Shown piece by piece: positions 488 through 63,516 of a stretch of 64,000 bases of DNA. Position 1 is the stretch's first letter. Each line of letters opens with the position of its first letter. The DNA lies in the IMG/VR virus record IMGVR_UViG_3300020583_000014, positions 5,742-69,741 of that record, one strand, 5' to 3'. The notes under the pieces are model-generated. The model saw nothing but the letters and a program-made list of their open reading frames with translations, was not told the origin of the DNA and did no database searches. Both the position numbers and the translations under genes were made by a program. This DNA is from a virus.

Positions 488-1573
488 TTAGGGTCTGTAT
501 TTAATACACGCCCTGTTTAGTGCCTTTCCAGGCTTGGTTATCCACTTCCAATTAGGGCCCCACGCATACAAGTCAGCAGGTACCTCAGGGGGTAGCTGAT
601 CCATATGGGTGAGTACTAGCTTGCTGGTGCCCCAGGTGTTATCTTTCTTTATCCTTTCCAAGAGGGCTGGGTAATCCAATGGGGCGAATCGTAGGGTACC
701 TTGGAACTGATGCTTCAGGTTAGTATTATCCGGGTACGATAGGTTAGCATTCTCCCCCGGTAGGGGGCCAGCACCATGGCGTGTTAGGTAAGTGCGGGAT
801 ACGTAATAGGTTTCTATATCCTTTATACCTGCCTGGGTGCATAGGGCCTGCACATTATGACTACCTGTGTTAGATCGTGTTAAGTGAGGGAAGAACTCCT
901 TGTTGTTTTGGTCAAGAAGTAATCCCTGTGCCCCCTCAAACACGGGATCTTTACATTGGGAAATCCCGAGGGGGTGTATCTCATTTGCTATCTGAGAGCA
1001 CCCTTGGAGGAAAGCATGGATCATGTTATCTGGATTACCTATGGGGCTTCCAATACGGAAGGTTGAGTATGTGGAGCACATATCTACCAATTTACTCTCT
1101 AGGGATTTTGAGTTATTCCAGAGATCGGCCATGGTGATCTTTAGCTCCGGCAACATGGATCTCTCCACTGTCTCATTTACCCCCAGGCCAACACTTCCAT
1201 GCCTATCCTTTCCGCGCCTAGTCTCTAACTCTTGGTTGATAAACATATCAACGAAGGTAGTTACGGTACATTCTGGGTGGGCAAATACAAGGGGGGTAAT
1301 CCCCAAAGTGGTAAGCTCTTCTTTCTCCCTGAAGTAGGCTATCGGGTTGACTACGAAGTATTTTGAGAGGTAGGTGGGGACCCCTCTCAGAGTCCCCGAT
1401 CCAAAGTGGCTGAATACATGCCGTCTTCCATCCTCATGGACTACAGTATGCCCTGCTTGAGCCCCACCATTGAAACGGACCACAATACCTGCCCCATGCA
1501 TACAAAGCCAATCGGTAACCAACCCCTTCCCCTCGTCTCCGAAGTTGGCACCGATTACAGCGCGTGCTATCAT
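488..1573 (-). CDS. purA: adenylosuccinate synthetase-like protein (short, divergent PurA family)
   Basis: Motifs GANFGDEGKG, RFNGGAQAGHTV, HGSVGLG, FEGAQGLLLD, YLTRHGAGP; start moved to ATG 1573 (MIARAVIG), next to the vWA stop. Confidence 0.85.
   Translation of the reverse strand: MIARAVIGANFGDEGKGLVTDWLCMHGAGIVVRFNGGAQAGHTVVHEDGRRHVFSHFGSGTLRGVPTYLSKYFVVNPIAYFREKEELTTLGITPLVFAHPECTVTTFVDMFINQELETRRGKDRHGSVGLGVNETVERSMLPELKITMADLWNNSKSLESKLVDMCSTYSTFRIGSPIGNPDNMIHAFLQGCSQIANEIHPLGISQCKDPVFEGAQGLLLDQNNKEFFPHLTRSNTGSHNVQALCTQAGIKDIETYYVSRTYLTRHGAGPLPGENANLSYPDNTNLKHQFQGTLRFAPLDYPALLERIKKDNTWGTSKLVLTHMDQLPPEVPADLYAWGPNWKWITKPGKALNRACIKYRP
491..513. repeat. 23-bp dispersed palindrome copy (3' end of PurA-like CDS)
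   Basis: gggtctgtatttaatacacgccc. Confidence 0.95.
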
Positions 1574-1574
1574 C

Positions 1575-2489
1575 TTAGACCCCCACCCCCGGCAGTAATC
1601 TAGGCCCTCTACCAGTGGGAATTTGCTGCACGGCATCGTAAACTACGGAGCCTACCCTTGGAGTCCAGCGGGATGCGCTGTCCTTTGCAGATAGCCCCTC
1701 TGCAATCTCAATGGCCGAGACGATTGTCTCTGCCAGCTTGGTATGGTCAGCAAGGGGGATAGTATGCTGACCTAATAGGGTATTCCAGCTTTCCATTACT
1801 TGACTAAAATGGGAACGGGCATGATCACCCTCTTTGATAACCACATGGAATACATCATAGTAGCGTTGTGCAGCTTCCAGGGATACAAGGGGGCTGATAT
1901 CCTCTTGAATATCATCCCCGATGAATCGTTTAATTTGTGCCTTGGTAAGGGACTTTGGGGATTCCTCATCCCCCACTGTAAAAAGGTACCCACGCTTAGC
2001 CCGCTTTTCATAACTGTCATGGACAGTATGTTCAGACGCGAAATACCAGGGGAAGTTATAGGATTCAAAGTTGTTCCCACCACCCCCACCCTCAAGGTAA
2101 ATCTGGGTAAGCTGTTCAATGATTCGTTTATCAGCTTCAAATTGGCTAACTTGGAGGGGAGCCGAATCACAATTGGCATCTCCTACCCCCATGAACATAA
2201 CGTGGGGGTCTGAGATAGGCTTACGATCAAGGATTGAGGTAAAGAGAGTACCCAGGCCCTCTTTGGCGATAACTGAGGCAATCATACCCATACTGCCCGT
2301 GACATCTAGGGCAATAATGACAGGGGTAGACTGTGGGTTACTTGCACTATCCCTGGATTCCCGTACTTTGATATGTAGGGGGTCCAGATTCTTATTCAGT
2401 CGAGATGAGTAAATCTCATCCACATGTTTGTGTCTTACCGAATCTGTAAAGGTCCGGTATGTTGTGGGATCAAAAGTACCTGCGCCCAT
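1575..2489 (-). CDS. vWA domain protein
   Basis: IIALDVTGSMG MIDAS-like motif, GGGGGNNFESY, LFTVGDE; adjacent to the PurA-like gene. Confidence 0.8.
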   Translation of the reverse strand: MGAGTFDPTTYRTFTDSVRHKHVDEIYSSRLNKNLDPLHIKVRESRDSASNPQSTPVIIALDVTGSMGMIASVIAKEGLGTLFTSILDRKPISDPHVMFMGVGDANCDSAPLQVSQFEADKRIIEQLTQIYLEGGGGGNNFESYNFPWYFASEHTVHDSYEKRAKRGYLFTVGDEESPKSLTKAQIKRFIGDDIQEDISPLVSLEAAQRYYDVFHVVIKEGDHARSHFSQVMESWNTLLGQHTIPLADHTKLAETIVSAIEIAEGLSAKDSASRWTPRVGSVVYDAVQQIPTGRGPRLLPGVGV

Positions 2490-2523
2490 CTTTATGGTTT
2501 CTCCTTTGCTTACTTACACTTCC

Positions 2524-2551
2524 ATCATACCATATATTGACTATTTGTCAA
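2524..2551 (-). promoter_or_regulatory. sigma70-type promoter for vWA-PurA operon
   Basis: TTGACA-16-TATGAT with extended -10 TG on minus strand. Confidence 0.65.
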
Positions 2552-2745
2552 GTTGTTTGGAGGTCATTTACCTCTTGCTATCCATGCAATTCCTAGGGTA
2601 GAATATGGCTGTGGAGGTCATTATGCTGAACTCGAATAAGATCATGGCCCCCGTTACTGTGCCGGTTGCGGGGGATACCATCCTCACCTTTGTTGAGGAT
2701 AGGAATGGGCGGTGGATTGCCATCCGCACCCCAAAAGCCCAAGAA

Positions 2746-2768
2746 CGGCCTGTATTAAATACAGACCC
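2746..2768. repeat. 23-bp dispersed palindrome copy
   Basis: cggcctgtattaaatacagaccc (reads RPVLNTDP in ORF 2605..2799). Confidence 0.9.
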
Positions 2769-2795
2769 TAAATCCTGGATTTTATCTAAGGTAGC

Positions 2796-2824
2796 TTGAC
2801 AAATAGGCAAACCTCTGGTATCCT
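2796..2824 (+). promoter_or_regulatory. sigma70-type promoter
   Basis: TTGACA-17-TATCCT with extended -10 TG. Confidence 0.7.
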
Positions 2825-2849
2825 AGAATTTGACTGGGGCTAGTATAGC

Positions 2850-3432: not shown

Positions 3433-3455
3433 GGGTCTGTACTAAATACAGACCC
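3433..3455. repeat. 23-bp dispersed palindrome copy (between tRNA and Zn-finger gene)
   Basis: gggtctgtactaaatacagaccc. Confidence 0.95.
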
Positions 3456-5937: not shown

Positions 5938-7298
5938 TCGTACGCTGACTTCTTTCTAACTAACCTTTCTGCCCGCTCCTGTATTGGCCATAGTTCTAAT
6001 GTACGGGCCGCGTCCTGACAAGCATAGGGCAGTATCTTCTCTAAGGGGGTATGGGATATGCACTTACCAGGATAGGGACCAAGCTTAGCCTCTATCTCTT
6101 CATGGTGCATTTCCCAGTTACCCCATCTATCAAACACATCCAGGTTTGGATTAGCCGCAAGATCCGTAAAGAACCTTTTTAGCTTAGTTCCAAAGGACTG
6201 GGGTTTATACCCTTTCCACTCCCCTTTGGTATCCCGTATACATTCCTCGGAGGGCCTGCTCCACTCTTCTTGTAGCCCCCTAGCATAGTATTCTAGAATC
6301 CTATAGGTAGAGTAGGGGCGTACAAGGTCATCAAAGCTCTGCATCTCTGCCCCCAGGAAGCGGTAGGCTAGGGTCTTTAGGCCCTGTGGCATATTCCCTA
6401 GATGATAGGCTTCAGCCATGGTATCTATAATCAGATGATGGGGTACTGGCACCCCCATCCGCTTAAGGATGGGCCGGTCGAACAGCCTATTGTGTAACAG
6501 TATATGACCCTTCCACCTTTGTATCCACCAAGCCAATCTACCCAAAGCACAACTGTCTCCGGCCTGGATAAGTCTAGCTGTGCCTGGGCGCACTGAGAAG
6601 GTAAGGCAAAATGGAGTACCATTACGTGTTATCTCTGTATCGAGGGCCATGTTACATTCTGTATCTTGTTGAATATACTCATCTACGGCACTGCTTGTAT
6701 TTAATACAAACCCGAAATCAGGATTTGGGTACTTATCCTGAGGGATGATTAACTCCCCTTTTAGATACTTGCGGAGGCGGATAAAGCAGCTTCGTAGATG
6801 GAGCATGAACTTGGGCTCATGTATCCCACGTGCTGGATGCCATATTGGAAATATGGCCCTCTCCATATCCCCAGGAACATCCCATATAAAAGGGAAAGCG
6901 AAGTGTACATCAAGATCCAACCCTGGTATCAGGGATGCAATTACTCCCCCTGCTGGTATGATAAGTTCTGGGTTAGTTTCCTTTATTTGCCTATATAAGT
7001 GGTGCTCGGCACAGGATCTTATCATAGCGGCATCTTTAGGGTTGCTGTGGTCTAGCTTACCCTCAGAACTAGTTGGGTAGCAGGCTACTGTGTTGGTTAT
7101 CCTAATATCTCCCCTACGTAATCCAGCCAAAGGTAGGTAGTGCTCCGTAAGCTCCTGCCCAGTTTTACCAACAAAGGGCCTTCCGTACTTTGACTCTTCC
7201 TTTCCAGGTGCTTCTCCAATCAACATGACACTACATTTTTCTGGACCACAAGGGGGCACGATTGGATTCTTACCTGGGCATAGGGGGCATCTATCCAT
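5922..7298 (-). CDS. family-4 uracil-DNA glycosylase fused to 3'-5' exonuclease (N-terminal half of DNA polymerase)
   Basis: CxxC, IGEAPG..E...GRPFVG, HPA (UDG4); LDTE, HNRLFD, YACQDA (Exo I-III). Confidence 0.85.
   Translation of the reverse strand: MDRCPLCPGKNPIVPPCGPEKCSVMLIGEAPGKEESKYGRPFVGKTGQELTEHYLPLAGLRRGDIRITNTVACYPTSSEGKLDHSNPKDAAMIRSCAEHHLYRQIKETNPELIIPAGGVIASLIPGLDLDVHFAFPFIWDVPGDMERAIFPIWHPARGIHEPKFMLHLRSCFIRLRKYLKGELIIPQDKYPNPDFGFVLNTSSAVDEYIQQDTECNMALDTEITRNGTPFCLTFSVRPGTARLIQAGDSCALGRLAWWIQRWKGHILLHNRLFDRPILKRMGVPVPHHLIIDTMAEAYHLGNMPQGLKTLAYRFLGAEMQSFDDLVRPYSTYRILEYYARGLQEEWSRPSEECIRDTKGEWKGYKPQSFGTKLKRFFTDLAANPNLDVFDRWGNWEMHHEEIEAKLGPYPGKCISHTPLEKILPYACQDAARTLELWPIQERAERLVRKKSAYEWFNL
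6691..6713. repeat. 23-bp dispersed palindrome copy (UDG/exonuclease linker)
   Basis: ctgcttgtatttaatacaaaccc, read as GFVLNTSS. Confidence 0.9.
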
Positions 7299-9853: not shown

Positions 9854-10488
9854 ATTTCCTCCGCTGTAGTTAATACGGACCCGGTTTCCATATTTAGCCT
9901 GTACTGGGAATAATCTACTAGAACTGCCCAGTTGGTATCAATCTCGGCTTGCGTAAACTCTACCTCATAGACCTGATAAATGGGGGTGATTGGGTACTTA
10001 TAATCCCCACATATATAAAGGATATAGATGCGTGCGAACCGAGTGCCCAGCCCTTTGCAATAAGCCTTTAGCTGGGTAAGCCACATCCATTGTGTCTTTA
10101 GATCATGCTTGGCACTCTTATAGGTACATTTAACTTCATGCACCACCAACTCAAATCCCCTTGATCCCAGCAGGACTCTATCAACTGATTCACCATCAGG
10201 AGACATATATACCCCCTGCAATAGTATCTCCCCAGGATGGTCAGTCACCCCCTCAAGGGTAGGAATCAAATGTTCTTCCCAGGCCAAACCTATTCGCATT
10301 CTAAGTATCACATTTGGATCAGTAATCTCCCGTGCATCCACAAGGCTAAGGTCTTCTACCCACTTCTTATCCAGGAATCCTACCTCAACCGCCAGAGAGC
10401 GGATGATATTAGATACATGCAGACCCTCTGAGCGGGGGGTCTTAGAGGGAGGTAAAGTGAGCGGGGTGGTGATGTCTAAAATAGTCAT
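9850..10488 (-). CDS. PD-(D/E)XK exonuclease (Cas4/RecB-like)
   Basis: GLHVS, G.AWE, SPDG, HEVKCT, Q..AYC. Confidence 0.75.
   Translation of the reverse strand: MTILDITTPLTLPPSKTPRSEGLHVSNIIRSLAVEVGFLDKKWVEDLSLVDAREITDPNVILRMRIGLAWEEHLIPTLEGVTDHPGEILLQGVYMSPDGESVDRVLLGSRGFELVVHEVKCTYKSAKHDLKTQWMWLTQLKAYCKGLGTRFARIYILYICGDYKYPITPIYQVYEVEFTQAEIDTNWAVLVDYSQYRLNMETGSVLTTAEEM
9860..9882. repeat. degenerate copy of 23-bp palindrome (C-terminus of PD-(D/E)XK nuclease)
   Basis: tccgctgtagttaatacggaccc, read as GSVLTTA. Confidence 0.5.
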
Positions 10489-10492: not shown

Positions 10493-10515
10493 TGGTATGT
10501 ACTTAATACAGACCC
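10493..10515. repeat. 23-bp dispersed palindrome copy (intergenic)
   Basis: tggtatgtacttaatacagaccc. Confidence 0.9.
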
Positions 10516-12297: not shown

Positions 12298-13847
12298 AAT
12301 TTTGGTGGGGGAGGGGGAGCCACTTGTAACTTTCTGAAAAATTGGTGAAATGTACGTGGCGCAAAATGCCCATACTTACCCCGCGCCCACTCGATATTGT
12401 CATCAATGATGAACGACTCTCCTCGATCCGATTTAGACCGCATGATCCGGCCTATTGTCTGTACCAAGGTCTGCATCATCTTATAAGGACCATACTCCGG
12501 GTCCGCTGCCTGCCGTGCCTGTACAATCTTGGAGCGGCCATCCTGGAAAGGTACCTTGAGAAGTATCTGGTATTCTGCCTCCTTTCCAGCGAAGTCAAAT
12601 CCAGTATTTATGCTGGGGCTTGCCAGTACAGCCGGGGGGCCTGATGCCTTAAACAGGTCAATAGCATCCGTAACCGATTCCCCCTTTGTATTCACTATCA
12701 TTCTGGGACTGTATTTAGTACACGCCAACATTTCCTCTAGCCGCTTCCAGGAGACTGTATGGATAAGCCCCTTTCTATCCCCCCTACGGCCCATGATCTG
12801 ATCTGCCCGTAGGTATAAAAGGGATAGGTCTGTCTGCTTATGGTCATTCCGCATAGTAGGAATCCAATATGTAGGGCAGCGGGAGGCATCAAAGTCTGAA
12901 GGGTACTCAAAGAAATCAAACCTCTCCTGGGGCACCCCAAGCATGTACATGGTCTTGGGCCGGATTGTGGCGGATACCATTATGATACGGGGGATACGGC
13001 AGAACAGTTTAAGTTCTGCGTACCGGGCAGGGCGGATAGGGTCGAACTGCCAGCCTACATCCCTGATCTCTTCTCCTATCCAGTCCTGGGGGGAAGCTGT
13101 TGAGAGGGTAAGTAGCCGCTGCTGAAGGTTAATAAGATGGGAGTATTCTTTAATCCAGGCTGGCTTAGGGTTAGCACATGCTATCTTGATTGTTGCAGCC
13201 TCCAGAGCAATAGTACAAACTATGTGGGCACTCTTAGCCCAGCGTTTCCAGTTCCAAAACTCATCAGCCTCAGTCCCATCTAAGAAAGGTAACCGTAGAG
13301 CTTCAATCTCCTTATGGTGGAGAAGTATTTGCATGTGATTAGCAAGAGCCTCAGGAGCCTCATGACCCTCATCACATATAAGTTGCTCAAAGTTGGAGAA
13401 AGGGGAGTCATCCTTACGGGTTACGAACCACTTGGAATAATTAGTAACACCAAGAGGGGCTACCCTAAGACGCATTTCTGCGGAACTGTAGGGGCACGAT
13501 ACAGAGCCCCAATAAGGGCATCGCCCCACCCTACCATCCTCACAGGTATAGTCCTCCCGTAGTTCACATTGATAGTTTGAGCGCCCACGGATCTCTACCA
13601 TCCCACAGGATGAAAAATCCTGGAGGTATTGATCCATTAACCCCTTAGTAGAGGTTAGAATAATAGTTCTTTTCTTGGAGGCTAATGCGGTAGCAACTAC
13701 GGCAGGGCTCTTTCCGAATCCGGTCGGAGCACAGAATACTGAGGATCTTTTGGGGGAGTTGAGGAGGGAGTTAATACCTTGTTCTTGATTAGTTCTCCAG
13801 GAGGAGAATTTCTTGGGCAACCCAATACTTTCGGGGGTAATTATCAT
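12294..13847 (-). CDS. DinG/Rad3-family SF2 helicase
   Basis: Q motif, APTGFGKS, Fe-S cysteines, DEGH, SAT, GFDF, QTIGRIMRS. Confidence 0.88.
   Translation of the reverse strand: MIITPESIGLPKKFSSWRTNQEQGINSLLNSPKRSSVFCAPTGFGKSPAVVATALASKKRTIILTSTKGLMDQYLQDFSSCGMVEIRGRSNYQCELREDYTCEDGRVGRCPYWGSVSCPYSSAEMRLRVAPLGVTNYSKWFVTRKDDSPFSNFEQLICDEGHEAPEALANHMQILLHHKEIEALRLPFLDGTEADEFWNWKRWAKSAHIVCTIALEAATIKIACANPKPAWIKEYSHLINLQQRLLTLSTASPQDWIGEEIRDVGWQFDPIRPARYAELKLFCRIPRIIMVSATIRPKTMYMLGVPQERFDFFEYPSDFDASRCPTYWIPTMRNDHKQTDLSLLYLRADQIMGRRGDRKGLIHTVSWKRLEEMLACTKYSPRMIVNTKGESVTDAIDLFKASGPPAVLASPSINTGFDFAGKEAEYQILLKVPFQDGRSKIVQARQAADPEYGPYKMMQTLVQTIGRIMRSKSDRGESFIIDDNIEWARGKYGHFAPRTFHQFFRKLQVAPPPPPKL
12705..12727. 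repeat. 23-bp dispersed palindrome copy (inside helicase)
   Basis: gggactgtatttagtacacgcca, read as LACTKYSP. Confidence 0.85.
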
Positions 13848-14209: not shown

Positions 14210-14614
14210 ATGAGATTAAGTGAAGCAATCCGGTTAGGGTCCTTACTGGGACCACAGGCATTTGGAACCCTGGCTGATATGCTTGGGGGCACTTGTGCCC
14301 TGGGTTCGGCTGCAAAAGCTATGGGTATACAAATTACAACGGCTTATGAAGCTGAAGATACCCTAAAAGAACTTTTCCCCATATTTGAGTGTGAACAAGA
14401 ACCCCCAGTACCAATGCCTGTGGTTGACTTGTATACGATAATAATGGAGCTTAATGATGCATATCGCTGGAGCCGGGAGAGAATAGCTGATTGGGTGGAG
14501 TTCATTGAGAAAGCTGAAGAGGCCAAAACAGGGCGTGTATTAAATACAGACCCTATTTCAGAGCCTACCGCCCCCTATACTCCTGATCTGGTTTGTAGCC
14601 TACTCCACCAATAG
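14210..14614 (+). CDS. hypothetical protein
   Basis: MRLSEAIRLG..CALG..LND...WSRERIADWV; ATG 7 nt after the -10 box. Confidence 0.7.
   Translation: MRLSEAIRLGSLLGPQAFGTLADMLGGTCALGSAAKAMGIQITTAYEAEDTLKELFPIFECEQEPPVPMPVVDLYTIIMELNDAYRWSRERIADWVEFIEKAEEAKTGRVLNTDPISEPTAPYTPDLVCSLLHQ
14531..14553. repeat. 23-bp dispersed palindrome copy (in CDS)
   Basis: gggcgtgtattaaatacagaccc, read as GRVLNTDP. Confidence 0.95.
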
Positions 14615-16535: not shown

Positions 16536-16558
16536 GGGTGTGTACTAAATACAGACCC
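16536..16558. repeat. 23-bp dispersed palindrome copy (intergenic)
   Basis: gggtgtgtactaaatacagaccc. Confidence 0.95.
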
Positions 16559-20851: not shown

Positions 20852-20874
20852 TGGTGTGTATTAAATACAAGCCC
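20852..20874. repeat. 23-bp dispersed palindrome copy (intergenic)
   Basis: tggtgtgtattaaatacaagccc. Confidence 0.9.
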
Positions 20875-31022: not shown

Positions 31023-31045
31023 CTGCGTGTACTTAATACAGACCC
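31023..31045. repeat. 23-bp dispersed palindrome copy (intergenic)
   Basis: ctgcgtgtacttaatacagaccc. Confidence 0.9.
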
Positions 31046-33679: not shown

Positions 33680-33702
33680 CGGTGTGTACTAAATACAGAC
33701 CC
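33680..33702. repeat. 23-bp dispersed palindrome copy (intergenic)
   Basis: cggtgtgtactaaatacagaccc. Confidence 0.9.
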
Positions 33703-35681: not shown

Positions 35682-35704
35682 AGGCGTGTACTTAATACAG
35701 ACCC
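35682..35704. repeat. 23-bp dispersed palindrome copy (intergenic)
   Basis: aggcgtgtacttaatacagaccc. Confidence 0.9.
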
Positions 35705-38250: not shown

Positions 38251-38273
38251 GGGTGTGTATTTAATACAAACCC
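38251..38273. repeat. 23-bp dispersed palindrome copy (intergenic)
   Basis: gggtgtgtatttaatacaaaccc. Confidence 0.95.
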
Positions 38274-40554: not shown

Positions 40555-40577
40555 GGGCTTGTATTAAATACAGACCC
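40555..40577. repeat. 23-bp dispersed palindrome copy (intergenic)
   Basis: gggcttgtattaaatacagaccc. Confidence 0.95.
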
Positions 40578-43726: not shown

Positions 43727-43749
43727 GGGTCTGTATTAAATACAAACCC
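43727..43749. repeat. 23-bp dispersed palindrome copy (intergenic)
   Basis: gggtctgtattaaatacaaaccc. Confidence 0.95.
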
Positions 43750-46759: not shown

Positions 46760-46782
46760 GGGCGTGTACTTAATACAAACCC
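46760..46782. repeat. 23-bp dispersed palindrome copy (at portal stop codon)
   Basis: gggcgtgtacttaatacaaaccc. Confidence 0.95.
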
Positions 46783-49286
46783 TACTTGGGGGGTCCTTGT
46801 GCGGCTTGGCCGCCCACTGGGGGCATAAGAACTGGAGGTTTGCTAACTAACCCATTTGGGGCTGGCGCGGGTGGACCTCCCGGTTTAGGCGGTCCAGGGG
46901 GGGCAGCAAGAGCGGGGGGAGCTACTCCCGGAGGTCCAGGAGGACCTGGAGGCGTAGGTCCCCCAGGCCCAGGTGGTGCCCCCATCGGGGGTGGAGGGGG
47001 CAAGCTCAATCCTTTATGGGACTTCCAGAAGGCTACCACGTTAGCATACCCATTCGGGTTAGATTGCCTTATACCTTGTGCCTTCTCAGTCTGAAACCAC
47101 TCTTCCAATGCAGCGGCCACAAAATCATGGGGATCATACTCATCCACAGGAATACTCGGGATATCTACGGTCTGACCTGGGGCCATCTGACTGGGCTGCT
47201 GGGTGGGTTGGGCCTGTAAAAGCTGCCGGATCTCGTTCTTTACCTTTGAGAGAGCTTCCTGGTTAGGAATCTCCCAGTTAGGCATCCCTATTATCTTATC
47301 TTGTAGGGCTGGAATGTTGGACGGTAGATTGTAGCCCAGTTGCGTAAGCATCTGCGGATTACCAGCCAGATTCTTAAGATTCTCATTTAGCTGCTCCCTC
47401 TGCTCCGGCCAACTCATTGGTATGGCATCAGCCCCCTCAAAGTGGAATCCACCCTGAAGTAACTCCTCAATGCCATCTACAATATCTACCTCTTGCTGGG
47501 GGGAGAAGGGAGAAGGGATTCTTCCACCTGAATACTTAGCCATCAGTATAACAGCATTATAGGTAACTCCGCACCAATAATCTCTCGCGGAATCTGCCGC
47601 CATGGATAACTGAAGCATGGCCTGATTTCTCTTCAGGTTAGTAGCATACGCAGTAGTCTCTGCTGTACCCGCTCCATAAATTTGAGGAGTGATACCAATA
47701 ATCCCCGCACCAATTTCCCTCTGACCGTCAGAATACTGCTGCATTTCGGGCTCAGGTTTAGCCACAGGTACATGGCCGATTGCGTCGTTAATATTCCCAC
47801 CTTGGCCCGATTGAATAGGGATAAAGGAAGCTGGCAACTGCCTATAGCGGTGTTGAAAGGTTGTATCAATCCTTCTGGTGTCAATGAGTACCTGGGGGAT
47901 AGCCCGCTCCCAGGTTTGTCTTTGGATATTGGCAAGGTCATTTATTAAATCCTGTACGTCTACAAAATCAGTACAAACTGGGTCTGCATATGCTGTCTCC
48001 GCAGGCTCCGGTTGAGCCATACAGAAAAAGTCATCTAAGCGGGCTTCCTTAATCTCAGCAATATAATCACCCGATATAAGGTTAACCTGCATCCCCGTTG
48101 GGTACAATTTCCGCAGGGCATCCCGTGTCTTCATAGTCTGCCCGTTAATCTCCACATCCCCCTGGCAAAGCTCATACATCGTAGGGCGCAGCCATACTTC
48201 AGTGAACATCAGGGTATTTTTGCGGGGGGCAAGATATATACCAGAAGGAGAGGAGGCAATTTCGCGGGTAATCTGGCCCGCTGTGGTGGAAGTACCGCCC
48301 CCACCATAAGCATCCTGCCCCTCGTTCCTGAACTTATCCCTATACTGAGGATACTGCCTGAATATCCGGCCCTTATGTAACTCCCGCTCCCGCATAAGCC
48401 AGTTTGTATCCACAAGGGACTGGATATCAAACTCCGTGGTAATCCTCATCTCGGACTCCACAGTATGTTCTACACAACCATTAGCATATCTCTTAACCCC
48501 CACCTGTTGGGGGAGGGTCATTACCTCAGGCTCTCTGAAATCCTCTTGGCTAAGGGGCTCCCCACAGGTAGGGCACATTTCAGGGAGAACATTGATATCT
48601 TCTACTGAAGTAGAAGTCCCACAGAATTTACATTGCATCGTAGGGGAGCCAACTGGAACTGGAGTATCTTTCATTACCGGCTCCTCTACATACCCATACT
48701 TCTCCCCATCAGCCACAAAGCGGGTATAGCCAAACGCGGGCCCATTCTTATAAAAGGTTAAGAACAACTTCTGGTTATCCCGTTTCACCTTCCATAGATT
48801 ATGAAGTTTGTCGGCTATATCCTGTGCAAGCTTAGCCCTTCTTACATGGTCATCGTTCGTTTCATCATTGGGCTCAGCTTTTACGTTTGGGGGGCCTTGG
48901 GCAAGGACGGCAATGAATTTCCTCCCATATCCCCGGAGATCGTTAACCACTGTATAATAGGTTCCATCGGAGTCGTCGTCCACAAATTCATGCCAAGTTC
49001 CATCGATGGGCTTATAATCAACCAATTGCCCATCTTGATTGTATATCTCGTCGAGGTATTGATTTCCCCTCCAGTAGAGTTCATTTCTGCGTAACTGAGC
49101 ATACCTATATATCTTCTCCGGGTCGATGGCTAACCGTACATCATCTTGTACAAGTCTACCCACAGGCCCACGCAGATTTTCTAGTATAGGGTCCTTTTCA
49201 GGCTTAGAATCAGGGCGTGTATTTAATACAGACCCAGAATCAGAGGGTATATTTGAGGGGGGAAAGGGGGCCAAAGGGGGGGTCAT
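46782..49286 (-). CDS. portal protein (P22/podovirus-like) with zinc-ribbon insert
   Basis: Y..G.Q, N......, P..K..P...D...A..A, QD.IN, G..TA..T...NQA pattern; Pro-rich tail; downstream of terminase. Confidence 0.8.
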   Translation of the reverse strand: MTPPLAPFPPSNIPSDSGSVLNTRPDSKPEKDPILENLRGPVGRLVQDDVRLAIDPEKIYRYAQLRRNELYWRGNQYLDEIYNQDGQLVDYKPIDGTWHEFVDDDSDGTYYTVVNDLRGYGRKFIAVLAQGPPNVKAEPNDETNDDHVRRAKLAQDIADKLHNLWKVKRDNQKLFLTFYKNGPAFGYTRFVADGEKYGYVEEPVMKDTPVPVGSPTMQCKFCGTSTSVEDINVLPEMCPTCGEPLSQEDFREPEVMTLPQQVGVKRYANGCVEHTVESEMRITTEFDIQSLVDTNWLMRERELHKGRIFRQYPQYRDKFRNEGQDAYGGGGTSTTAGQITREIASSPSGIYLAPRKNTLMFTEVWLRPTMYELCQGDVEINGQTMKTRDALRKLYPTGMQVNLISGDYIAEIKEARLDDFFCMAQPEPAETAYADPVCTDFVDVQDLINDLANIQRQTWERAIPQVLIDTRRIDTTFQHRYRQLPASFIPIQSGQGGNINDAIGHVPVAKPEPEMQQYSDGQREIGAGIIGITPQIYGAGTAETTAYATNLKRNQAMLQLSMAADSARDYWCGVTYNAVILMAKYSGGRIPSPFSPQQEVDIVDGIEELLQGGFHFEGADAIPMSWPEQREQLNENLKNLAGNPQMLTQLGYNLPSNIPALQDKIIGMPNWEIPNQEALSKVKNEIRQLLQAQPTQQPSQMAPGQTVDIPSIPVDEYDPHDFVAAALEEWFQTEKAQGIRQSNPNGYANVVAFWKSHKGLSLPPPPPMGAPPGPGGPTPPGPPGPPGVAPPALAAPPGPPKPGGPPAPAPNGLVSKPPVLMPPVGGQAAQGPPK
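49213..49235. repeat. 23-bp dispersed palindrome copy (portal N-terminus)
   Basis: gggcgtgtatttaatacagaccc, read as GSVLNTRP. Confidence 0.95.
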
Positions 49287-49320: not shown

Positions 49321-49326
49321 AGATAT

Positions 49327-49536: not shown

Positions 49537-49539
49537 TTA

Positions 49540-50736: not shown

Positions 50737-52772
50737 TTCACCCTCCTAGGCTGCTTAAAGAAGCGGGAAGACTCAGGGCGCACATTGAAAGGCTGCATTT
50801 TACCCTTTCCATGCTTAAATTCATCTTCGTATTGACGGGCTACATGACAAAGGGAGTTATAATCCATATTAGGATTCATTGCGCGGGCCTCATCAAGCTT
50901 TCTTTTGACGAAACTCTGCTGTGGCTCGGGAATCTGATGAACGTTCTCAGAAAATAGGGTATACCTAAGGCTATCGCAAAAATCGTCTTCTGGAGTGTTA
51001 CGTTTGAGCACATCCTCTGTGCCCTCTTTATACTCTGCCGTAGGTATTGCTTCAATTAGCTTAGAACAGTTATCGAAAATAAGCAACTTGGGTAAAATCT
51101 CAGGCTTGCGGGCCTCAAATGATCTCAAATACTCCTTATAAAGTTGTGTATTCTCGTGCAACAGCTTCATGGAATACTCATAATCAAAAGTCTGCTTACT
51201 TGACTCAGAAAGTTGCCGGAAACGGAGCATTTCCCGTATGTGCTGCCATCCTAGGATACGATCATTAGGGGCCTTCTCTATGGTAATGCCAAATTCCCTC
51301 TGTTTGCGGGCTTTTTTGACATCCGAAAGCCCCCATTCCGGGCTTGTATTAAATACAGACCCTGTTTGAGGGGCCAACTGCTCATAAAATTCAGGTATAT
51401 AGGCGGCTCCAACCCCTAAAACGGAGTCAATCCCCTTCCCGATATGGGCGGCAATGGTGTTCTCCCCAGCATCCCGTGAAAATGCGTCAAAAGAGAGCCA
51501 TAACTGCATGTGGGGGGGTACCCCGGCCTTCTCCATAGCCATCAAATCATGGAAACTAGCCCTTGCGATAGCTGCCCCAACAGCATCAGAGCTAGTTTCG
51601 TTACCAGAAAGCTCCCTATATATGATAGTTTGACCATTCTGATCCCGACAGGCCCATAGGAAGACGTAATTATGACCATAACCCCAGTCCCCACCTATCC
51701 AGCGGGGCCAAAAAGGAGCCAAAGCATGACTTCCAGCAGGAATAACATGGCGAGCCACGTCACCAGGAGGGTCACCAGCAAGGGGACCTTTGGGCCGGAA
51801 GTCACGAAAGTACTGCCCACCAAGAGCATCCCAATCCCCAAGCAACCAAGCGGATCTAGTGGGCTCAGGTAACGCATCCAGTTGCTTAACATATTGACCA
51901 TCCCGCATCAGATAGGGATTATCCGTCACTTTTGAGGGTATATAAATGCGGGTAAGACCGCTGCGCTCGTCCTTATATATAGTGTCCGGTGGGCCTACCG
52001 ATATAAACCGTTTCTTAACCCAAATTGCACCCTTCCCTCCAGGATTAGTAGTACATAAAATCTGGGGTTTGAGGGCTCCACAAACACAATTCCCAGGTCT
52101 GCATTTACCCTTACAGGAGAAAGTTGAGCGGCAAGAGGCTGCAATTCGGAGATATAGAAGCTCATCGGATACCTGAGTAAGCTCCTCGAATACAATTCTA
52201 TGGAACTCCTGCCCCATATAATCAGTATAGGAAGATTCATCCCGCATATGACCTAATACAAAGGTGGCCCCACTGGGCCACACTGCGCGGGCAGGCTTCT
52301 CTGTTACATTTGCTCCCATAGGTCCGTAAAGCATCTTGGCACGGGAAAGCCAATCCGCAAGATCCTTCTCATTTTCTCTAAGGATGAGAGCGCGGTAGTG
52401 AGGGTGGGCTATATAACTAATGTTGACACAGATTCCACAGTAGGAATCATCCCCTACCCCCTGCATGATATGTTCCCCACCAGGGTGGGTACCAGTCTCC
52501 GAAGGGTTACCCTTAAGAAGGAATCCCCTACCACATTCCGTCTTACCCCCTCCGCGAGCACCCCCAAAAAGTATCTCAAATGCAGGGCTTATGAGAGTAC
52601 GAATCATCGGTCCAGGGGGGCACCCATAGATACAAGTAGACTTACCCTTCTCCAATAATTCAAAATGATGGCGGCAATAAGTTGGAACCCAATGGGCCTG
52701 CCCCTTAATCTCCCCAGTCTCAAATCCAATAGGGGGGGCAACACCCCTAGGTTTAGCCATAGATACTACCAC
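50733..52772 (-). CDS. terL: terminase large subunit
   Basis: Walker A GGARGGGKT, Walker B FEELTQ, motif III TTNPGG, nuclease GGDWGY and DDFCDSLRY. Confidence 0.92.
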   Translation of the reverse strand: MVVSMAKPRGVAPPIGFETGEIKGQAHWVPTYCRHHFELLEKGKSTCIYGCPPGPMIRTLISPAFEILFGGARGGGKTECGRGFLLKGNPSETGTHPGGEHIMQGVGDDSYCGICVNISYIAHPHYRALILRENEKDLADWLSRAKMLYGPMGANVTEKPARAVWPSGATFVLGHMRDESSYTDYMGQEFHRIVFEELTQVSDELLYLRIAASCRSTFSCKGKCRPGNCVCGALKPQILCTTNPGGKGAIWVKKRFISVGPPDTIYKDERSGLTRIYIPSKVTDNPYLMRDGQYVKQLDALPEPTRSAWLLGDWDALGGQYFRDFRPKGPLAGDPPGDVARHVIPAGSHALAPFWPRWIGGDWGYGHNYVFLWACRDQNGQTIIYRELSGNETSSDAVGAAIARASFHDLMAMEKAGVPPHMQLWLSFDAFSRDAGENTIAAHIGKGIDSVLGVGAAYIPEFYEQLAPQTGSVFNTSPEWGLSDVKKARKQREFGITIEKAPNDRILGWQHIREMLRFRQLSESSKQTFDYEYSMKLLHENTQLYKEYLRSFEARKPEILPKLLIFDNCSKLIEAIPTAEYKEGTEDVLKRNTPEDDFCDSLRYTLFSENVHQIPEPQQSFVKRKLDEARAMNPNMDYNSLCHVARQYEDEFKHGKGKMQPFNVRPESSRFFKQPRRVN
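51340..51362. repeat. 23-bp dispersed palindrome copy (inside terminase nuclease domain)
   Basis: gggcttgtattaaatacagaccc, read as GSVFNTSP. Confidence 0.95.
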
Positions 52773-55222: not shown

Positions 55223-55245
55223 GGGTCTGTATTTAGTACCCGCCT
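55223..55245. repeat. 23-bp dispersed palindrome copy (intergenic)
   Basis: gggtctgtatttagtacccgcct. Confidence 0.8.
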
Positions 55246-55701: not shown

Positions 55702-56449
55702 ATGCCCCCTATGCACACACGATCTGGCAGAAGACATAAACCGTGATCTTGTCCTCTATCATATGTCAGCCACCGCTGTGGCTCTCAAGTATGGTATCAA
55801 CCACCACAAGCTTGTAACTAAACATAAACCCCATATCACAAAGAGTCTAGCAGCGGCAGCAGAACGCCGGGAGATCACTGCCCATGACCGCCTCCTAGCT
55901 GATACAGAAATGCTATGGAGGGAGACACAAGAAGCCTTAAAGGAAAGTAAGAGTGCAGTCAAGAGTATGGCGGTAACAGAAGGCTACGGGAAGGAGGCAA
56001 GGACAGCATACCGGGAGTATAAGGATCTAGCCCCCCTTATATCTGCCCTCAAAGTAGCCCATGATAACCGCAGACTTTTTGGGGATGCCACAGGAGCTAT
56101 AAAAGGGGGGGCATCTACCTCACAGGTAGGGGTTTACCTCTCTATTGCCATGCCCCGTATGGAGGGGGGACCCCCTGCAATAGAAGGGCGTGTACTAAAT
56201 ACAAACCCTGTTCTAGAGAGTGAAACAGAGGAAGAAAACGAGTTATGGGCCGGGGCGGGTAATGCCGCACGGGAGGTATCCCCTATACCACCTGAAGACC
56301 ACCCGGCCCTATCCAAACGCAAGAAAGTGTATAAGCCACTCAAGAAAGGGGTACCGGACTTCCGCGCAGGCAGCCCGGGTAAGATGACGCGGGTAAAGCA
56401 ACATGTGAAGGATAAAATCTGGGGTAAGGATAGGGAGTACGGAAAATAA
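55691..56449 (+). CDS. possible terminase small subunit / HTH protein
   Basis: CxxC..H, HTH-like ATAVALKYGI..., KH..H, helical oligomerisation segment; function inferred. Confidence 0.45.
   Translation: MDLKCPLCTHDLAEDINRDLVLYHMSATAVALKYGINHHKLVTKHKPHITKSLAAAAERREITAHDRLLADTEMLWRETQEALKESKSAVKSMAVTEGYGKEARTAYREYKDLAPLISALKVAHDNRRLFGDATGAIKGGASTSQVGVYLSIAMPRMEGGPPAIEGRVLNTNPVLESETEEENELWAGAGNAAREVSPIPPEDHPALSKRKKVYKPLKKGVPDFRAGSPGKMTRVKQHVKDKIWGKDREYGK
56186..56208. repeat. 23-bp dispersed palindrome copy (in CDS)
   Basis: gggcgtgtactaaatacaaaccc, read as GRVLNTNP. Confidence 0.95.
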
Positions 56450-58071: not shown

Positions 58072-58094
58072 GGGCGTGTACTAAATACAAACCC
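58072..58094. repeat. 23-bp dispersed palindrome copy
   Basis: gggcgtgtactaaatacaaaccc. Confidence 0.95.
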
Positions 58095-58613: not shown

Positions 58614-58636
58614 GGGCGTGTATTAAATACAGACCC
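58614..58636. repeat. 23-bp dispersed palindrome copy
   Basis: gggcgtgtattaaatacagaccc. Confidence 0.95.
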
Positions 58637-59278: not shown

Positions 59279-59284
59279 GAACAT

Positions 59285-60537: not shown

Positions 60538-60560
60538 GGGTTTGTATTTAGTACAAACCC
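60538..60560. repeat. 23-bp dispersed palindrome copy, followed by an extra half-site
   Basis: gggtttgtatttagtacaaaccc, then tagtacacaccc at 60566-60577. Confidence 0.95.
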
Positions 60561-60588
60561 AATTCTAGTACACACCCTAAACTGAGGG

Positions 60589-61891: not shown

Positions 61892-62187
61892 TCACATTTC
61901 TCCTTTTCTCTTAGCATAGACACTATTTCCTCATGTCCTTTAAGGGCTTCATCCCAAGTGCAATAACGCTCTTGGATATACTGGTTAGGGTCAGCAGGGC
62001 CAAACACCATTGTCTCAAACAGGACTGGACTAGCATGCTGACCATATCCATGATCTAGACCTAAGAACACAGTGGAGACTAGCGTTTCCCCTATCATAGT
62101 TTTCCCTACGATTCTTCCCCAGTCTTTATCCACTGGATATGTCCCGGCGCGTAGAATGTTATGGTTTTCGTCTAACGTGTACCACAT
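61888..62187 (-). CDS. hypothetical early protein
   Basis: VSTVFLGLDH..., LFETMVF, RY.TW.EA..GH motif; AAGGAG SD. Confidence 0.7.
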   Translation of the reverse strand: MWYTLDENHNILRAGTYPVDKDWGRIVGKTMIGETLVSTVFLGLDHGYGQHASPVLFETMVFGPADPNQYIQERYCTWDEALKGHEEIVSMLREKEKCE

Positions 62188-62256
62188 CAGGTTTCTCCTT
62201 TGTCAGAGTTAGATGCGAGCCCCACGGAATTGGATTCAACCGTGGGGCTTGCAGGG

Positions 62257-63072
62257 TTAGACCAGTTTTGCCATTGCCTCTGTTAGTTGCCAGAGGGACT
62301 TGTTGAGGCGTGTGTTCTCTCCAATCCCGGTTACAGCGCGGACCTTCACACGCCTATTGGTATGGGGATTCCTACCACGTGGGCCGCCTTGTGTAAGGTG
62401 TTCCTGCACCACGTTGAAGGTGTTCCAAAGGGTAGGAGCTTTATCCTCATACCGCCTGGGACGGATGATCTGTTCAGCGGATACCGGCGCTTCTCCCTCA
62501 TCGTAGCGGAGAGCAAGGGCAGAGTCAGCATATGCGGTCTGTTGTGGCGCGGTAAGGAGTTTCTGAGAGAAGGATTCCACTGACTCCAGCACTTTAGGGA
62601 ACTGCTCAATGACTTCAAAAGATGCTTCCAGGATATCATCCACACTCCCCTTGTGTACCTGATGGATGCGGGCCACCGTGGAATCTGCTACCACTAGACC
62701 ATTCAGGCAAGCCAACCGCCATAATGCCGCATCCAGGTTATGGGCCGAAGATCCATCATGGGCATTAGTCAGTAGCAGTTCTGGGTATAGGGTACCCAGT
62801 TTAAGGTTAAGTGGGCTATCCCCCTGCCGCATATCGCGGAAGCGGATAGCATGTTTGGTAAAGTCTCCCTTGCCGGGGATGCGGGTACGGGATTGGACCG
62901 CGCTAACCGGAACGAATCCCTCAGAGCGCATCTTATCCACAATTTGGATGGTGGGGATGAATGTATACCGTTCACTCATACGTTCCCATGGTTCGGTAGC
63001 GAAGATAGAAGGGGCTTCCTTCCATAGCTGCTCGTTGCTCATTGGAGTGGGCTGGTATTTTGCGTTAGTCAT
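62257..63072 (-). CDS. DUF932 family protein
   Basis: APSIFA...S.RYT.IPT, KH.IRFR, N.HDGSS, RL.C.NGLV, RR.ED...LW.TFN.VQE.L..GG, LN..LW. Confidence 0.85.
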   Translation of the reverse strand: MTNAKYQPTPMSNEQLWKEAPSIFATEPWERMSERYTFIPTIQIVDKMRSEGFVPVSAVQSRTRIPGKGDFTKHAIRFRDMRQGDSPLNLKLGTLYPELLLTNAHDGSSAHNLDAALWRLACLNGLVVADSTVARIHQVHKGSVDDILEASFEVIEQFPKVLESVESFSQKLLTAPQQTAYADSALALRYDEGEAPVSAEQIIRPRRYEDKAPTLWNTFNVVQEHLTQGGPRGRNPHTNRRVKVRAVTGIGENTRLNKSLWQLTEAMAKLV

Positions 63073-63096
63073 CTTTTGGCTCCTTTGCCTGTTCCT

Positions 63097-63125
63097 ACAG
63101 TACCAAACATTTGCCAAGGATGCAA
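63097..63125 (-). promoter_or_regulatory. sigma70-type promoter
   Basis: TTGCAT-17-TACTGT with extended TG. Confidence 0.55.
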
Positions 63126-63157
63126 CACTTACTTAATTAAGGTTTGTTAATCAAACA

Positions 63158-63180
63158 GGGCGTGTATTTAGTACACGCAG
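63158..63180. repeat. 23-bp dispersed palindrome copy
   Basis: gggcgtgtatttagtacacgcag. Confidence 0.85.
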
Positions 63181-63493
63181 CTTTATAACTTAAAGTACCC
63201 TACCAAACATAGCCCACAAGCTATTGAGGATAAAGGGGAGAAAAGTATTTGTTTGGTACAGAATTGTGATATTATGGGTTTGTACCAAGATTGACAGAGA
63301 GGCAAAAGATGATCCCAACTTGTTTTTACGATGTGGAGGATAGCATGGAAACCATAGGGTTTTCCTGTATCCATATCCCTAGTGGTAACCAGAAGCGGAC
63401 CTTCTACTATCTGCGGGATAGGGCCGGGTATACTAAGGGGTCCCTTGTGATAGACCCCCTAACTGGACAGGTAGTCGCTGGACCAGAGGTTTT

Positions 63494-63516
63494 GGGTCTG
63501 TACTAAATACACACCC
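63494..63516. repeat. 23-bp dispersed palindrome copy
   Basis: gggtctgtactaaatacacaccc. Confidence 0.95.

Follow-up and report, generated by a model that had tools for sequence, protein, structure and literature searches.

The 69,741-base soil-phage record IMGVR_UViG_3300020583_000014 carries 29 sites of a 23-bp element dispersed along its whole length. The element is best explained as a double-stranded DNA operator whose 13-bp core would be read by a protein dimer, the likeliest reader being the phage's own orphan ParB-like protein, an assignment in which we have moderate confidence. The array, its conservation and even spacing, the family-wide link to the ParB-like gene and, from modelling, the fold of the protein can be taken as established. 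Coordinates below refer to the analysed window (64,000 nucleotides, bases 5742-69741 of the record) unless given as genome positions.

Number, position and spacing of the sites

Within the window the exact pattern GGGNNTGTAYTWARTACANNCCC occurred 16 times and the core TGTAYTWARTACA, with at most one mismatch, 27 times, far above the frequency in 100 shuffles (none for the exact pattern; mean 0.34 and maximum 3 for the core). All 27 copies listed by a sequence-only reading were thus recovered where 0.34 were expected by chance, the core lying +5 bases from each start coordinate in that list. The degenerate copy that it reported (9860..9882, no orientation assigned) was also present, with two core mismatches and the core TGTAGTTAATACG followed by GACCC, as was the half-site AGTACACACCC (60566..60576, no orientation assigned). 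Across the whole record, 32 matches to the 23-mer were found with up to four substitutions; exclusion of three four-substitution matches (genome 27453, 34032 and 41951) left 29 sites, two of which (genome 481 and 3658) precede the window.

Several sites lie within coding sequences. They cover the last eight codons of a PurA-like gene (491..513, orientation ambiguous), codon 172 of the exonuclease gene, as a five-residue insertion relative to distant relatives (6691..6713, -), codon 374 of the helicase gene, in the opposite orientation (12705..12727, +), codon 413 of a 776-aa ORF, in phase 0 within a Pro-rich linker (22737..22759, -), and codon 141 of a 682-aa ORF, again in phase 0 (25601..25623, orientation ambiguous). 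Others fall at codon 18 of an 834-aa ORF, with a + strand sigma-70-type promoter scoring 11/12 about 57 nt away (49213..49235, -), at codon 467 of the large terminase gene, in a variable loop where homologs of 60-70% identity have TVLNT or TVLST (51340..51362, -), and in phase 0 within a 228-aa + strand ORF (56186..56208, -). Intergenic sites were located at 10493..10515 (-, with a - strand ATG 4 nt downstream), 14531..14553 (-), 16536..16558 (-, filling a stop-to-start gap, with the stop 3 nt and the start 5 nt away), 31023..31045 (-), 33680..33702 (-), 35682..35704 (-), 38251..38273 (-), 40555..40577 (-), 43727..43749 (+) and 46760..46782 (-), the end of the last abutting the stop codon of the 834-aa ORF. 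The remaining sites comprise one with a single outer-arm mismatch (2746..2768, -), a perfect palindrome 7 nt past tRNA-Met (3433..3455, -), one followed 4 nt downstream by an ATG that is probably the true gene start (20852..20874, -), one with two mismatches at the divergent junction of the - and + gene blocks (55223..55245, +), two in a small-gene region (58072..58094 and 58614..58636, both -), a nearly perfect palindrome preceding the half-site (60538..60560, no orientation assigned), one with two right-arm mismatches (63158..63180, +) and one 16 nt ahead of a + strand gene with a Shine-Dalgarno sequence (63494..63516, -).

Gaps between sites ranged from 336 to 5422 bases (mean 2405), and the even spacing claimed previously withstood comparison with random placement: the coefficient of variation (CV) was 0.47 against 0.97 under the null, none of 100,000 simulations was as even, and the probability that no gap exceeds 5422 bases was 0.0037. 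The same was observed for the main leftward gene block (CV 0.38; 0/100,000) and when the null was restricted to placement at gene boundaries (0/20,000). With phase 0 sites in linkers and loops of long genes and spacing beyond chance, placement appears to have been chosen for spacing. Even spacing was absent from the early and replication loci of distant relatives (CV 0.60-0.93).

The majority orientation was shared by 21 of the 29 sites and tracked the genome strand rather than local transcription (1/4 in + gene regions), two sites adjoining + strand tRNA genes being oriented opposite to those genes. This strand bias, the outer GGG/CCC arms and the conserved mismatch at positions 5/19 are features that a symmetric dimer leaves unexplained.

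Palindromes in related phages

In a relative with about 76-97% nucleotide identity, 20/20 comparable sites were kept, with changes almost confined to the variable positions even where the flanks were only 77-79% identical; two orthologous sites had one core change each. Eight further IMG/VR loci, retrieved with a profile of the ParB-like family, all contained a 13-bp palindrome of two 6-bp arms around one central base (6-1-6), in 4 to 19 copies with at most one mismatch (shuffles, at most 0.07). The motif varied by lineage (TGTAAT-S-ATTACA, CGTAGT-N-ACTACG or TGTAGC-N-GCTACA) and each genome held its own variant only. Among 80 control loci found through terminase (898 kb), no 6-N-6 palindrome reached four dispersed copies, three being the maximum and seen in one locus, and none of the loci encoded the ParB-like protein.

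The cores in these relatives are perfect two-fold palindromes found as often in genes as between them (15 of 19 copies within ORFs in locus L142), as fits a site read by a dimer at the DNA level. Being short and A/T-rich, they form no stable hairpins, which lends weight to the earlier preference for dimeric recognition of double-stranded DNA over an RNA hairpin. The PolA proteins of the eight loci are about 50% identical to that of the phage and a replication module is common to all, so the link between protein and motif could reflect shared ancestry.

The ParB-like protein as candidate reader

About 0.6 kb to the left of the window, an orphan protein of the ParB/RepB/KorB family (466 aa) is encoded at genome 3713-5113 on the + strand. 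The profile of its family matched Spo0J (E 9.9e-14), Noc (7.7e-13) and KorB (4.4e-5) over the N-terminal domain and the helix-turn-helix, and the RepB model TIGR03454 matched with an E-value of 1.2e-15, although the Pfam ParB_N and TIGR03454 scores were under the curated cut-offs. The AlphaFold model (mean pLDDT 85) retrieved Noc, ParB and KorB as top Foldseek matches (E about 3e-8), with a best target-normalised TM-score of 0.57-0.58 for KorB 8qa9, and shows the DNA-binding and dimer domains separated by a long coiled coil (residues 193-360). On this sequence and model evidence the protein is a genuine ParB-family member. Its C-terminal domain was predicted to homodimerize with a score of 0.59 against 0.02 for the best control, a mark reached in calibration by 20/30 solved pairs and 1/23 single chains, though such a pass may stem from likeness to solved complexes; at least 76% of contacts agreed among runs, with a partner pLDDT of at least 69.

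The gene was present in 9/9 array-bearing genomes and encodes the sole recognised site-specific DNA binder. The core of one site ends 37 nt before its start codon, a site lies 37-264 nt upstream of the corresponding ORF in 8/9 genomes, and in 5/8 related loci (L135-L138 and L141) the upstream site precedes a TTGACA -35 box by 13-42 nt. The recognition-helix region reads SNSF(I/L)NM in the six TGTAAT genomes and SN(S/A)W(L/V)NI in the three with other motif variants, a difference that could merely track phylogeny. Nucleotide-binding box II reads G-N-Y-R (G-x-Y-R in the family) instead of GERR, and CTP-driven clamping is for this reason only putative.

In Bacillus, Noc is an orphan ParB paralogue that binds and spreads from many dispersed palindromic sites on the chromosome and times cell division by tethering DNA to the membrane. 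Noc was among the top sequence and fold matches of the phage protein, but its sites are far less dense than the phage array.

The operator of RK2 KorB is likewise a 13-bp palindrome, TTTAGC(G/C)GCTAAA, with 12 copies on a 60-kb IncP plasmid, at distances from promoters that range between a few bp and over 1 kb, according to the available part of PMC13768133. The phage protein resembles KorB in its N-terminal domain, helix-turn-helix and C-terminal dimer domain, in its apparent 6-1-6 operator and in superposing best on KorB. The phage system differs in residing on a phage rather than a plasmid, in having 29 evenly spaced sites, partly in genes, instead of 12, in extending the operator to 23 bp, and in the G-N-Y-R box and long coiled coil of the protein. 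A search for an IncC/ParA partner was negative, and no KorA-like partner is known. With the orphan ParB-family protein, the analogy to parS- and KorB-like sites gains a concrete candidate in the same genome.

The closest phage precedent is provided by the Cluster O mycobacteriophages. As described in the available part of PMC4351075, Corndog is a siphovirus of about 70 kb, without integrase or parAB, that encodes an orphan ParB-like protein (gp90, 502 aa) and carries 34 exact palindromic copies of the 17-bp repeat TGTTCGGNNNCCGAACA, in and between genes and mostly distant from promoters; there the function of the repeat was left open and the ParB-like protein set aside. Our own count confirmed the 34 copies, and an hhalign comparison of gp90 with the phage protein family (probability 88.8, E 2.5e-6) gave an alignment that spans the N-terminal domain and reaches into the first part of the helix-turn-helix. 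Phage, host and motif are nevertheless unrelated, and the Corndog copies, judged by eye, are clustered where those described here are even. With Cluster O and RK2 as precedents, the earlier label of a candidate undescribed system does not hold as written. For the stoperators of L5 and Bxb1, the available parts of PMC3203893 and PMC4351075 describe some 20-30 genome-wide copies of a short repressor site, mostly in short intergenic gaps. The proposed analogy to them fails on symmetry, orientation and lack of integrase. Stoperators are asymmetric 13-mers aligned with transcription, and the phages that carry them are temperate, encoding both an integrase and an immunity repressor; the core in this phage is two-fold symmetric, its orientation is not set by local transcription and no integrase was found.

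Competing readings and the role of the array

A possible, if unlikely, alternative is that another dimeric transcription factor, a small unannotated phage regulator or a host factor, uses the sites as its operators, binding each statically without ParB-type spreading and serving as global repressor, activator or roadblock. The two-fold symmetry and lineage-specific variants suit such a factor, many phage ORFs are without a family match, and the Cluster O authors, in the available part of PMC4351075, likewise preferred unnamed dimeric DNA-binding proteins. Sites within 120 nt of a sigma-70-type promoter (at least 10/12) numbered only 3/29 against 2.05 expected in the phage, a point against the ParB-like reading, and 14/113 against 6.3 over all nine sequences, the latter a modest excess. 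However, the proteins scanned included no further recognisable helix-turn-helix protein, and the ParB-like protein accompanies all nine arrays. A host factor is unlikely in particular, given that the variants differ among related phages and that a search of 185,579 species genomes returned the 23-mer at 15 loci, only as single matches per contig. Static binding would also leave the even spacing and the sites inside long genes unexplained. Most ORFs of the phage are without known function, and another DNA-binding protein could be the reader.

Because sites occur inside genes, promoter, terminator and RNA-hairpin readings are weak. It is very improbable that the element works by folding into a hairpin, as single-stranded mRNA or lagging-strand DNA, for termination, RNA stabilisation, processing, antitermination or priming. 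The 23-mer could form a 9-bp stem, many sites occupy stop-to-start intervals, and folding of the majority strand is favoured by a mean of 1.1 kcal/mol (-7.8 against -6.7, Wilcoxon p 0.009). In that strand positions 4/20 and 10/14 have T opposite A or G, which suits G-U pairing, and one of the orthologous core changes is A to G opposite T. The earlier statement that pairing is not kept at the variable positions is borne out at 5/19 (paired in 5/29 sites, mismatched in 24/29) but not at 4/20, which by our own reading of the sequences are pairable in 26/29 on the majority strand when G-U is counted. Against a hairpin stand the 5/19 mismatch, the relatives' cores, which clearly belong to the same system, the sites inside essential genes (terminase, helicase, polymerase exonuclease) and the orientation by genome strand; terminator-like matches were not enriched (17, 17 and 15 against 18.2, 19.1 and 18.8 in shuffles) and Rfam gave no family match.

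It is scarcely credible that the element serves as a promoter, comparable to the 23-bp T7-type promoters, for an RNA polymerase or sigma factor that the phage encodes. Compatible with this are the high conservation across 23 bp, the density of about one site every 2.4 kb, the AAAYA flank upstream, a pyrimidine-purine step with the purine at position 20, and a start codon 3-9 nt downstream in about seven cases. Yet no phage RNA polymerase, sigma factor, ParA or integrase was found in the genome; a T7-type polymerase was detected neither by Pfam among large ORFs nor by a six-frame search, whose control also gave no signal, nor was sigma-70 region 4, and all non-structural ORFs are 520 aa or shorter. 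Consensus sigma-70 promoters (two at 12/12, five at 11/12) indicate use of the host polymerase, and the strong host-type promoters sit away from the sites. The relatives' sites are, moreover, perfectly symmetric and often inside genes, and orientation in + regions does not track gene direction. It is hardly to be believed either that the copies bind nothing themselves and were left behind by mobile or recombinogenic DNA (MITE-like ends, homing sites or module-shuffling boundaries). Homology to a more distant relative breaks exactly at 5/8 sites in the compared stretch and sites inside genes resemble short insertions, but assembly and ordinary recombination would also be expected to produce breaks at a shared repeat. 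The sites are neither flanked by direct repeats nor embedded in a longer element body common to them, the 20/20 retention and even spacing speak against such an origin, and the terminase-gene position appears conserved in homologs of 60-70% identity. Retention of the array under purifying selection on the core in independent genomes, which would also contradict it, is in part already apparent.

The sequence-only reading, that a protein is loaded along the whole phage chromosome, is thus partly supported, while the functions that it listed (silencing, compaction and protection among them) are not supported as written. In the reading preferred here, the core TGTAYT-W-ARTACA, a pair of 6-bp arms separated by a single base, would be contacted by a dimer of the ParB-like protein. 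As in the analogous KorB, Noc and ParB, this protein would be loaded at every site before spreading or sliding into the neighbouring DNA; binding, spreading and any effect of coating are what we infer. The likeliest purpose would be genome-wide control of transcription by the host polymerase, followed by the organisation or protection of replicating phage DNA. With one site per about 2.4 kb and every base within 2.7 kb of a site, the whole chromosome would be covered; a single plasmid provides a known counterpart of this layout, and a few phages offer hints of it.

An evenly spaced array of a conserved palindrome

The 23-bp palindrome that a sequence-only reading had described is real, as its exact pattern occurs 16 times in the window and not once in 100 shuffles. 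A core with at most one mismatch was found 27 times, against an expected 0.34, at the same 27 places listed in that reading; the degenerate copy at 9860 was likewise found, as was the half-site at 60566. Over the whole record, 32 matches were found at up to four substitutions; the three with four substitutions were dropped, leaving 29 sites, two of which lie left of the window. In the oriented alignment of these 29 sites, 11 of the 13 positions of the core TGTAYT-W-ARTACA (a 6-1-6 palindrome) are invariant. The complete 23-mer is imperfectly symmetric, its left half and the upstream AAAYA flank being better preserved than its right half, and positions 5 and 19 can pair in 5 of the 29 sites and are mismatched in the remaining 24. 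An extra weak core copy, GTGTAAAAAGTACAC, read on the minus strand at window 46710-46745, lies 9 nt past site 46760 and resembles the half-site that follows site 60538.

The even spacing also claimed for the array withstood comparison with random placement, the coefficient of variation of the gaps being 0.47 against 0.97, with none of 100,000 simulations as even. Within the main gene block the coefficient was 0.38, and none of 20,000 simulations restricted to gene boundaries was as even. The distance from a base to its nearest site has a median of 653 nt and a maximum of 2711 nt.

The record is a tailed-phage genome that encodes a large terminase, a family A DNA polymerase with a separate exonuclease, an SF2 helicase, an ERCC4 nuclease, an HNH endonuclease, a PurA-like enzyme and two tRNAs; its long structural ORFs had no protein-family match. 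Genes run mostly leftward, from about 60,960 to 5,143 in genome coordinates, and an intergenic site often occupies the whole gap between stop and start codons. At least five sites are clearly intragenic, in the terminase, helicase and exonuclease genes and in two large structural ORFs. The co-oriented intragenic sites are all in phase 0, read G-x-V-L/F-N-T and lie in proline-rich linkers. The terminase site falls in a variable loop where homologs at 60-70% identity carry TVLNT or TVLST, the peptide expected from the core, and the exonuclease site is a five-residue insertion relative to distant relatives. These two placements imply that coding sequence can accommodate sites, which were apparently put there where genes are long. 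Several large-terminase homologs (P0007, P0015, P0019, P0056 and P0064) are 960-1040 aa long and contain intein/homing-endonuclease Pfam domains. Start codons without a Shine-Dalgarno sequence just past sites were considered as a possible signal and set aside as uninformative, since by a crude test 35 of 60 genes have none anyway.

A metagenome scan recovered eight loci of a close relative at ~76-97% nucleotide identity. An orthologous stretch was available for 20 of the 29 sites and the element was kept in all 20, the changes falling almost entirely at variable positions, with one core change at each of two sites. Metagenome contigs with several copies were those of the close relative only. 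Searches of 185,579 species genomes and of IMG/VR gave 15 and 12 loci, respectively, with a single match in each, so the motif is not a host repeat or MITE. A 12-kb megablast and a tblastn search with the phage's ParB-like protein (described below) found no match among cultured phages, and the terminase alone found none in IMG/VR. Repeated 11-mers in comparison loci L057 and L096 proved to be tandem coding repeats, and no palindrome array was found in loci L055 and L056, which have the structural module in common with this phage (terminase identity 43-46%).

In contigs from a DNA run (X3) of a more distant relative, covering window 31000-50900, homology stops exactly at motif sites, with loose ends at 33681, 35714/35717, 38255, 40577 and 43722; at 43722 the flank is swapped for sequence resembling the flank of site 58614. 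These sites may mark recombination points or the edges of modules; alternatively, assembly at a repeat may have produced the pattern.

Several further genes were annotated. The PurA-like gene (361 aa; window 488-1573, minus strand) matched PurA models over residues 4-277 and the PurZ model in its first 60 residues only; with neither a MazG nor an HD partner gene found, a 2-aminoadenine genome is unsupported. The tRNA genes, tRNA-Met (CAT) at window 3352-3426 and tRNA-Leu (TAA) at 3885-3967, are both on the plus strand, and the sole perfectly palindromic site starts 7 nt past tRNA-Met and was flagged as terminator-like on both strands. The polymerase-associated exonuclease (window 5922-7226, minus strand) carries an additional domain at its N-terminus, marked by a GEAPG...FVGKTG signature and also present in its relatives; we take this domain to resemble family 4 uracil-DNA glycosylase. 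A 776-aa ORF in the tail-fibre region (window 21665-23995, minus strand) contains a histidine phosphatase domain (His_Phos_1) at residues 550-708. A second ParB-fold protein, of the DGRHR type (270 aa; genome 1073-1885, left of the window, plus strand), and a PAPS-reductase-like protein (265 aa; window 54129-54926, minus strand) presumably recall the IbrB/IbrA-type pairs of prophages.

Orientation, transcription and RNA structure

When internal positions only were scored, 21 of the 29 sites pointed in the majority orientation. Co-orientation with genes was seen for 17 of 24 assignable sites: the leftward block contributed 16 of its 20 and the rightward (plus-strand) regions 1 of their 4. Two sites counted with the block in fact lie beside the rightward tRNA genes, and both point leftward. 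The orientation bias tracks the genome strand, not local gene direction. A link between orientation and transcription, suggested by a flank-inclusive weight matrix (18 of 20), was abandoned once scoring by internal positions alone, with leave-one-out, had given the lower counts above.

A role of the sites as RNA hairpins, either intrinsic terminators or REP-like elements, might be read from the folding of the majority strand, which has a mean energy of -7.8 kcal/mol and is 1.1 kcal/mol more stable than the other strand. This reading is disfavoured by the rarity of pairing between positions 5 and 19, the intragenic position of at least five sites and the shortness of the cores in related phages. 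A role as T7-type or other phage promoters fared no better. No T7-type RNA polymerase (PF00940) was found in the scanned ORFs or in a six-frame search, a weak search in which the control also had no match, and sigma-70 region 4 was not found; moreover, host-type promoters occur elsewhere in the genome and the symmetric sites of the relatives are often intragenic. Promoter, terminator and RNA-element readings are all weakened by the strand-wise bias, the small difference in folding energy and the 5/19 mismatch.

Two perfect sigma-70-type promoters (TTGACA-17-TATAAT) and five 11/12 matches were detected, the expectation for a perfect one being ~0.007 per 20 kb by our own arithmetic, and the phage is transcribed by the host polymerase. 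Examples of these consensus promoters lie at window 54008-53980 and 13887-13859. Promoter-like and terminator-like matches showed no enrichment as a class. On the minus strand at window 59250-59319, a strong terminator-like hairpin (an 11-bp stem, then TTTTTT) is found immediately upstream of an 11/12 extended -10 sigma-70-type promoter, apparently a clear boundary between transcription units in the small-gene region.

Two soil metatranscriptome runs contained short contigs 99% identical to the phage, 22 in X4 and 14 in X5, a hint of phage activity in those soils, although carried-over DNA may account for them. Among the eight pieces listed for each run, 3 of 32 ends fall no more than 8 nt from a motif edge (38245, 40547 and 46790), from which no conclusion follows because contigs cannot show RNA ends or strand. 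Apparent joints between sites (31018/46755 and 33706/49212) were the motif matching itself. The contigs were deepest over a 442-aa ORF at window 42288-43615, possibly the major capsid gene.

An orphan ParB-like protein and its link to the array

Just left of the window, at genome 3713-5113, the phage encodes a 466-aa protein whose start codon is preceded by a site, the core ending 37 nt before it. The protein is a member of the ParB/RepB/Noc/KorB family, with an N-terminal ParB fold followed by a helix-turn-helix. Over these two regions its family profile matched Spo0J (9.9e-14), Noc (7.7e-13) and KorB (4.4e-5) in the PDB as well as ParB structures, and the RepB model TIGR03454 matched at E 1.2e-15, with the scores of TIGR03454 and Pfam ParB_N lying below their curated cut-offs. 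An AlphaFold model (mean pLDDT 85) returned Noc, ParB and KorB as top Foldseek matches (E ~3e-8), with KorB giving the best structural superposition. Beyond the helix-turn-helix region, a long coiled coil leads to a C-terminal domain (residues 372-466), through which the protein is predicted to dimerise: the homodimer scored 0.59 against 0.02 for the best control, passing a mark reached by 20 of 30 solved pairs and 1 of 23 single chains, with contact agreement of at least 76% and pLDDT of at least 69. The canonical CTP-binding box II (GERR), associated with clamp closure and sliding, is replaced by G-N-Y-R here and by G-x-Y-R across the family. The protein collection contains 40 family members, the longest of their contigs being ~63 kb.

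A ParABS partition system was not supported by the search for a ParA partner. No ParA ATPase (PF13614) was matched in the record, which may lack ~1-2 kb, while all 14 control genomes gave a match, and the N-terminus of the protein has no ParA-binding motif of the LG[KR]GL type, as that motif is defined in PMC12704722.

Eight related IMG/VR loci found with the family profile all carry a dispersed 6-1-6 palindrome, at 0.35-1.1 sites per kb, compared with at most 0.07 copies in shuffles. Each genome uses its own variant exclusively: TGTAAT-S-ATTACA in six loci, CGTAGT-N-ACTACG in one and TGTAGC-N-GCTACA in one. These sites are perfect 13-bp palindromes, too short to fold and often within ORFs; like the 6-1-6 core of the present phage, they are short palindromes of the kind expected of cognate sites. 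The terminase was used to collect 80 control loci (898 kb), of which none encodes the ParB-like protein and none has any one 6-1-6 palindrome in at least four dispersed copies. In a second control of 45 unrelated loci, counted without a spread filter, four had at least three 6-N-6 copies, two of these being ATATAT low-complexity sequence with four copies.

Gene and array thus co-occur in nine of nine genomes. A site precedes the ParB-like ORF by at most 264 nt in eight of them, and in five of the eight related loci (L135-L138 and L141) a TTGACA -35 box follows that site at a distance of 13-42 nt. The predicted recognition-helix region varies with the motif variant. Co-occurrence, upstream placement and helix variation speak indirectly for the ParB-like protein as the likely reader of the sites. 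The eight loci and the present phage also have a replication module in common, so protein and array both characterise a single phage family, and may be linked by ancestry instead of interaction.

Comparison with known systems and a possible role

The sequence-only reading had favoured recognition of double-stranded DNA by a dimeric protein, a view supported by the symmetric core and by perfect palindromes in the relatives that are too short to fold. Its analogy with mycobacteriophage stoperators fails: identity with the Cluster A elements was rejected on the symmetry of the core, the poor co-orientation with genes in plus-strand regions and the lack of any match to a tyrosine integrase (PF00589). 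As described in PMC3203893, stoperators differ from the present sites in symmetry and orientation, and so do the start-associated sequences of Cluster K phages.

The closest phage precedent is found in Cluster O mycobacteriophages, in which a 17-bp palindrome is reported 34 times in ~70 kb, within and between genes (PMC4351075); we recounted the same 34 copies. These phages are described as encoding an orphan ParB-like protein, gp90, without an integrase or parAB, and their authors left the function of the repeat open, predicting unnamed dimeric binders (PMC4351075). The N-terminal domain of gp90 aligns with the ParB-like family; however, the Cluster O repeats are clustered, whereas the present array is evenly spaced.

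The KorB plasmid system is, to our knowledge, the only one in which long-range silencing by a sliding clamp of the ParB family has been elucidated. KorB recognizes TTTAGC(G/C)GCTAAA, present in 12 copies on the 60-kb plasmid RK2, and acts as a sliding clamp with a kilobase range (PMC13768133). Orphan ParB-fold proteins are widespread in phages, with mostly unknown roles (PMC12704722), and one subclass without a DNA-binding domain activates thymine dioxygenases (PMC13229309). Our literature search found no description of a phage-wide array of ParB-type loading sites, although the supplement of PMC12704722, which tabulates the phage ParB-fold proteins surveyed and assayed there, may include this family.

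We infer binding, spreading and purpose alike for the ParB-like protein. The core would be an operator read by a dimer, most likely of this protein. On the model of KorB, ParB and Noc, the protein would be loaded at the sites and from there spread along adjoining DNA. Even spacing, with every base within 2.7 kb of a site, would fit a KorB-like distance-limited process, and together with the forcing of sites into coding sequence points to a process limited by distance. A tentative reading, which we consider possible but on balance unlikely, is that in this uncultured soil phage family without ParA or integrase an orphan ParB-like protein coats the whole chromosome from sites held by selection at a spacing of ~2.4 kb. 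Selection would then even have placed sites in frame in the linkers of essential genes. Such a coat might serve genome-wide as a timing switch for transcription by the host polymerase; alternatively, it might be a condensate in which replication and packaging are organised, or might protect the DNA from host nucleases.

A distance-limited process would be directly measurable, and the orthogonal variants TGTAYT, TGTAAT, CGTAGT and TGTAGC could serve as a natural set of protein-operator pairs. The ParB-like protein and its dense, conserved and lineage-specific array form a clear testable case for the roles of such proteins in viruses, and suggest a candidate reader for the Cluster O palindromes. 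If a ParB-like protein does coat the whole chromosome, the same logic may explain those long-unexplained repeats.
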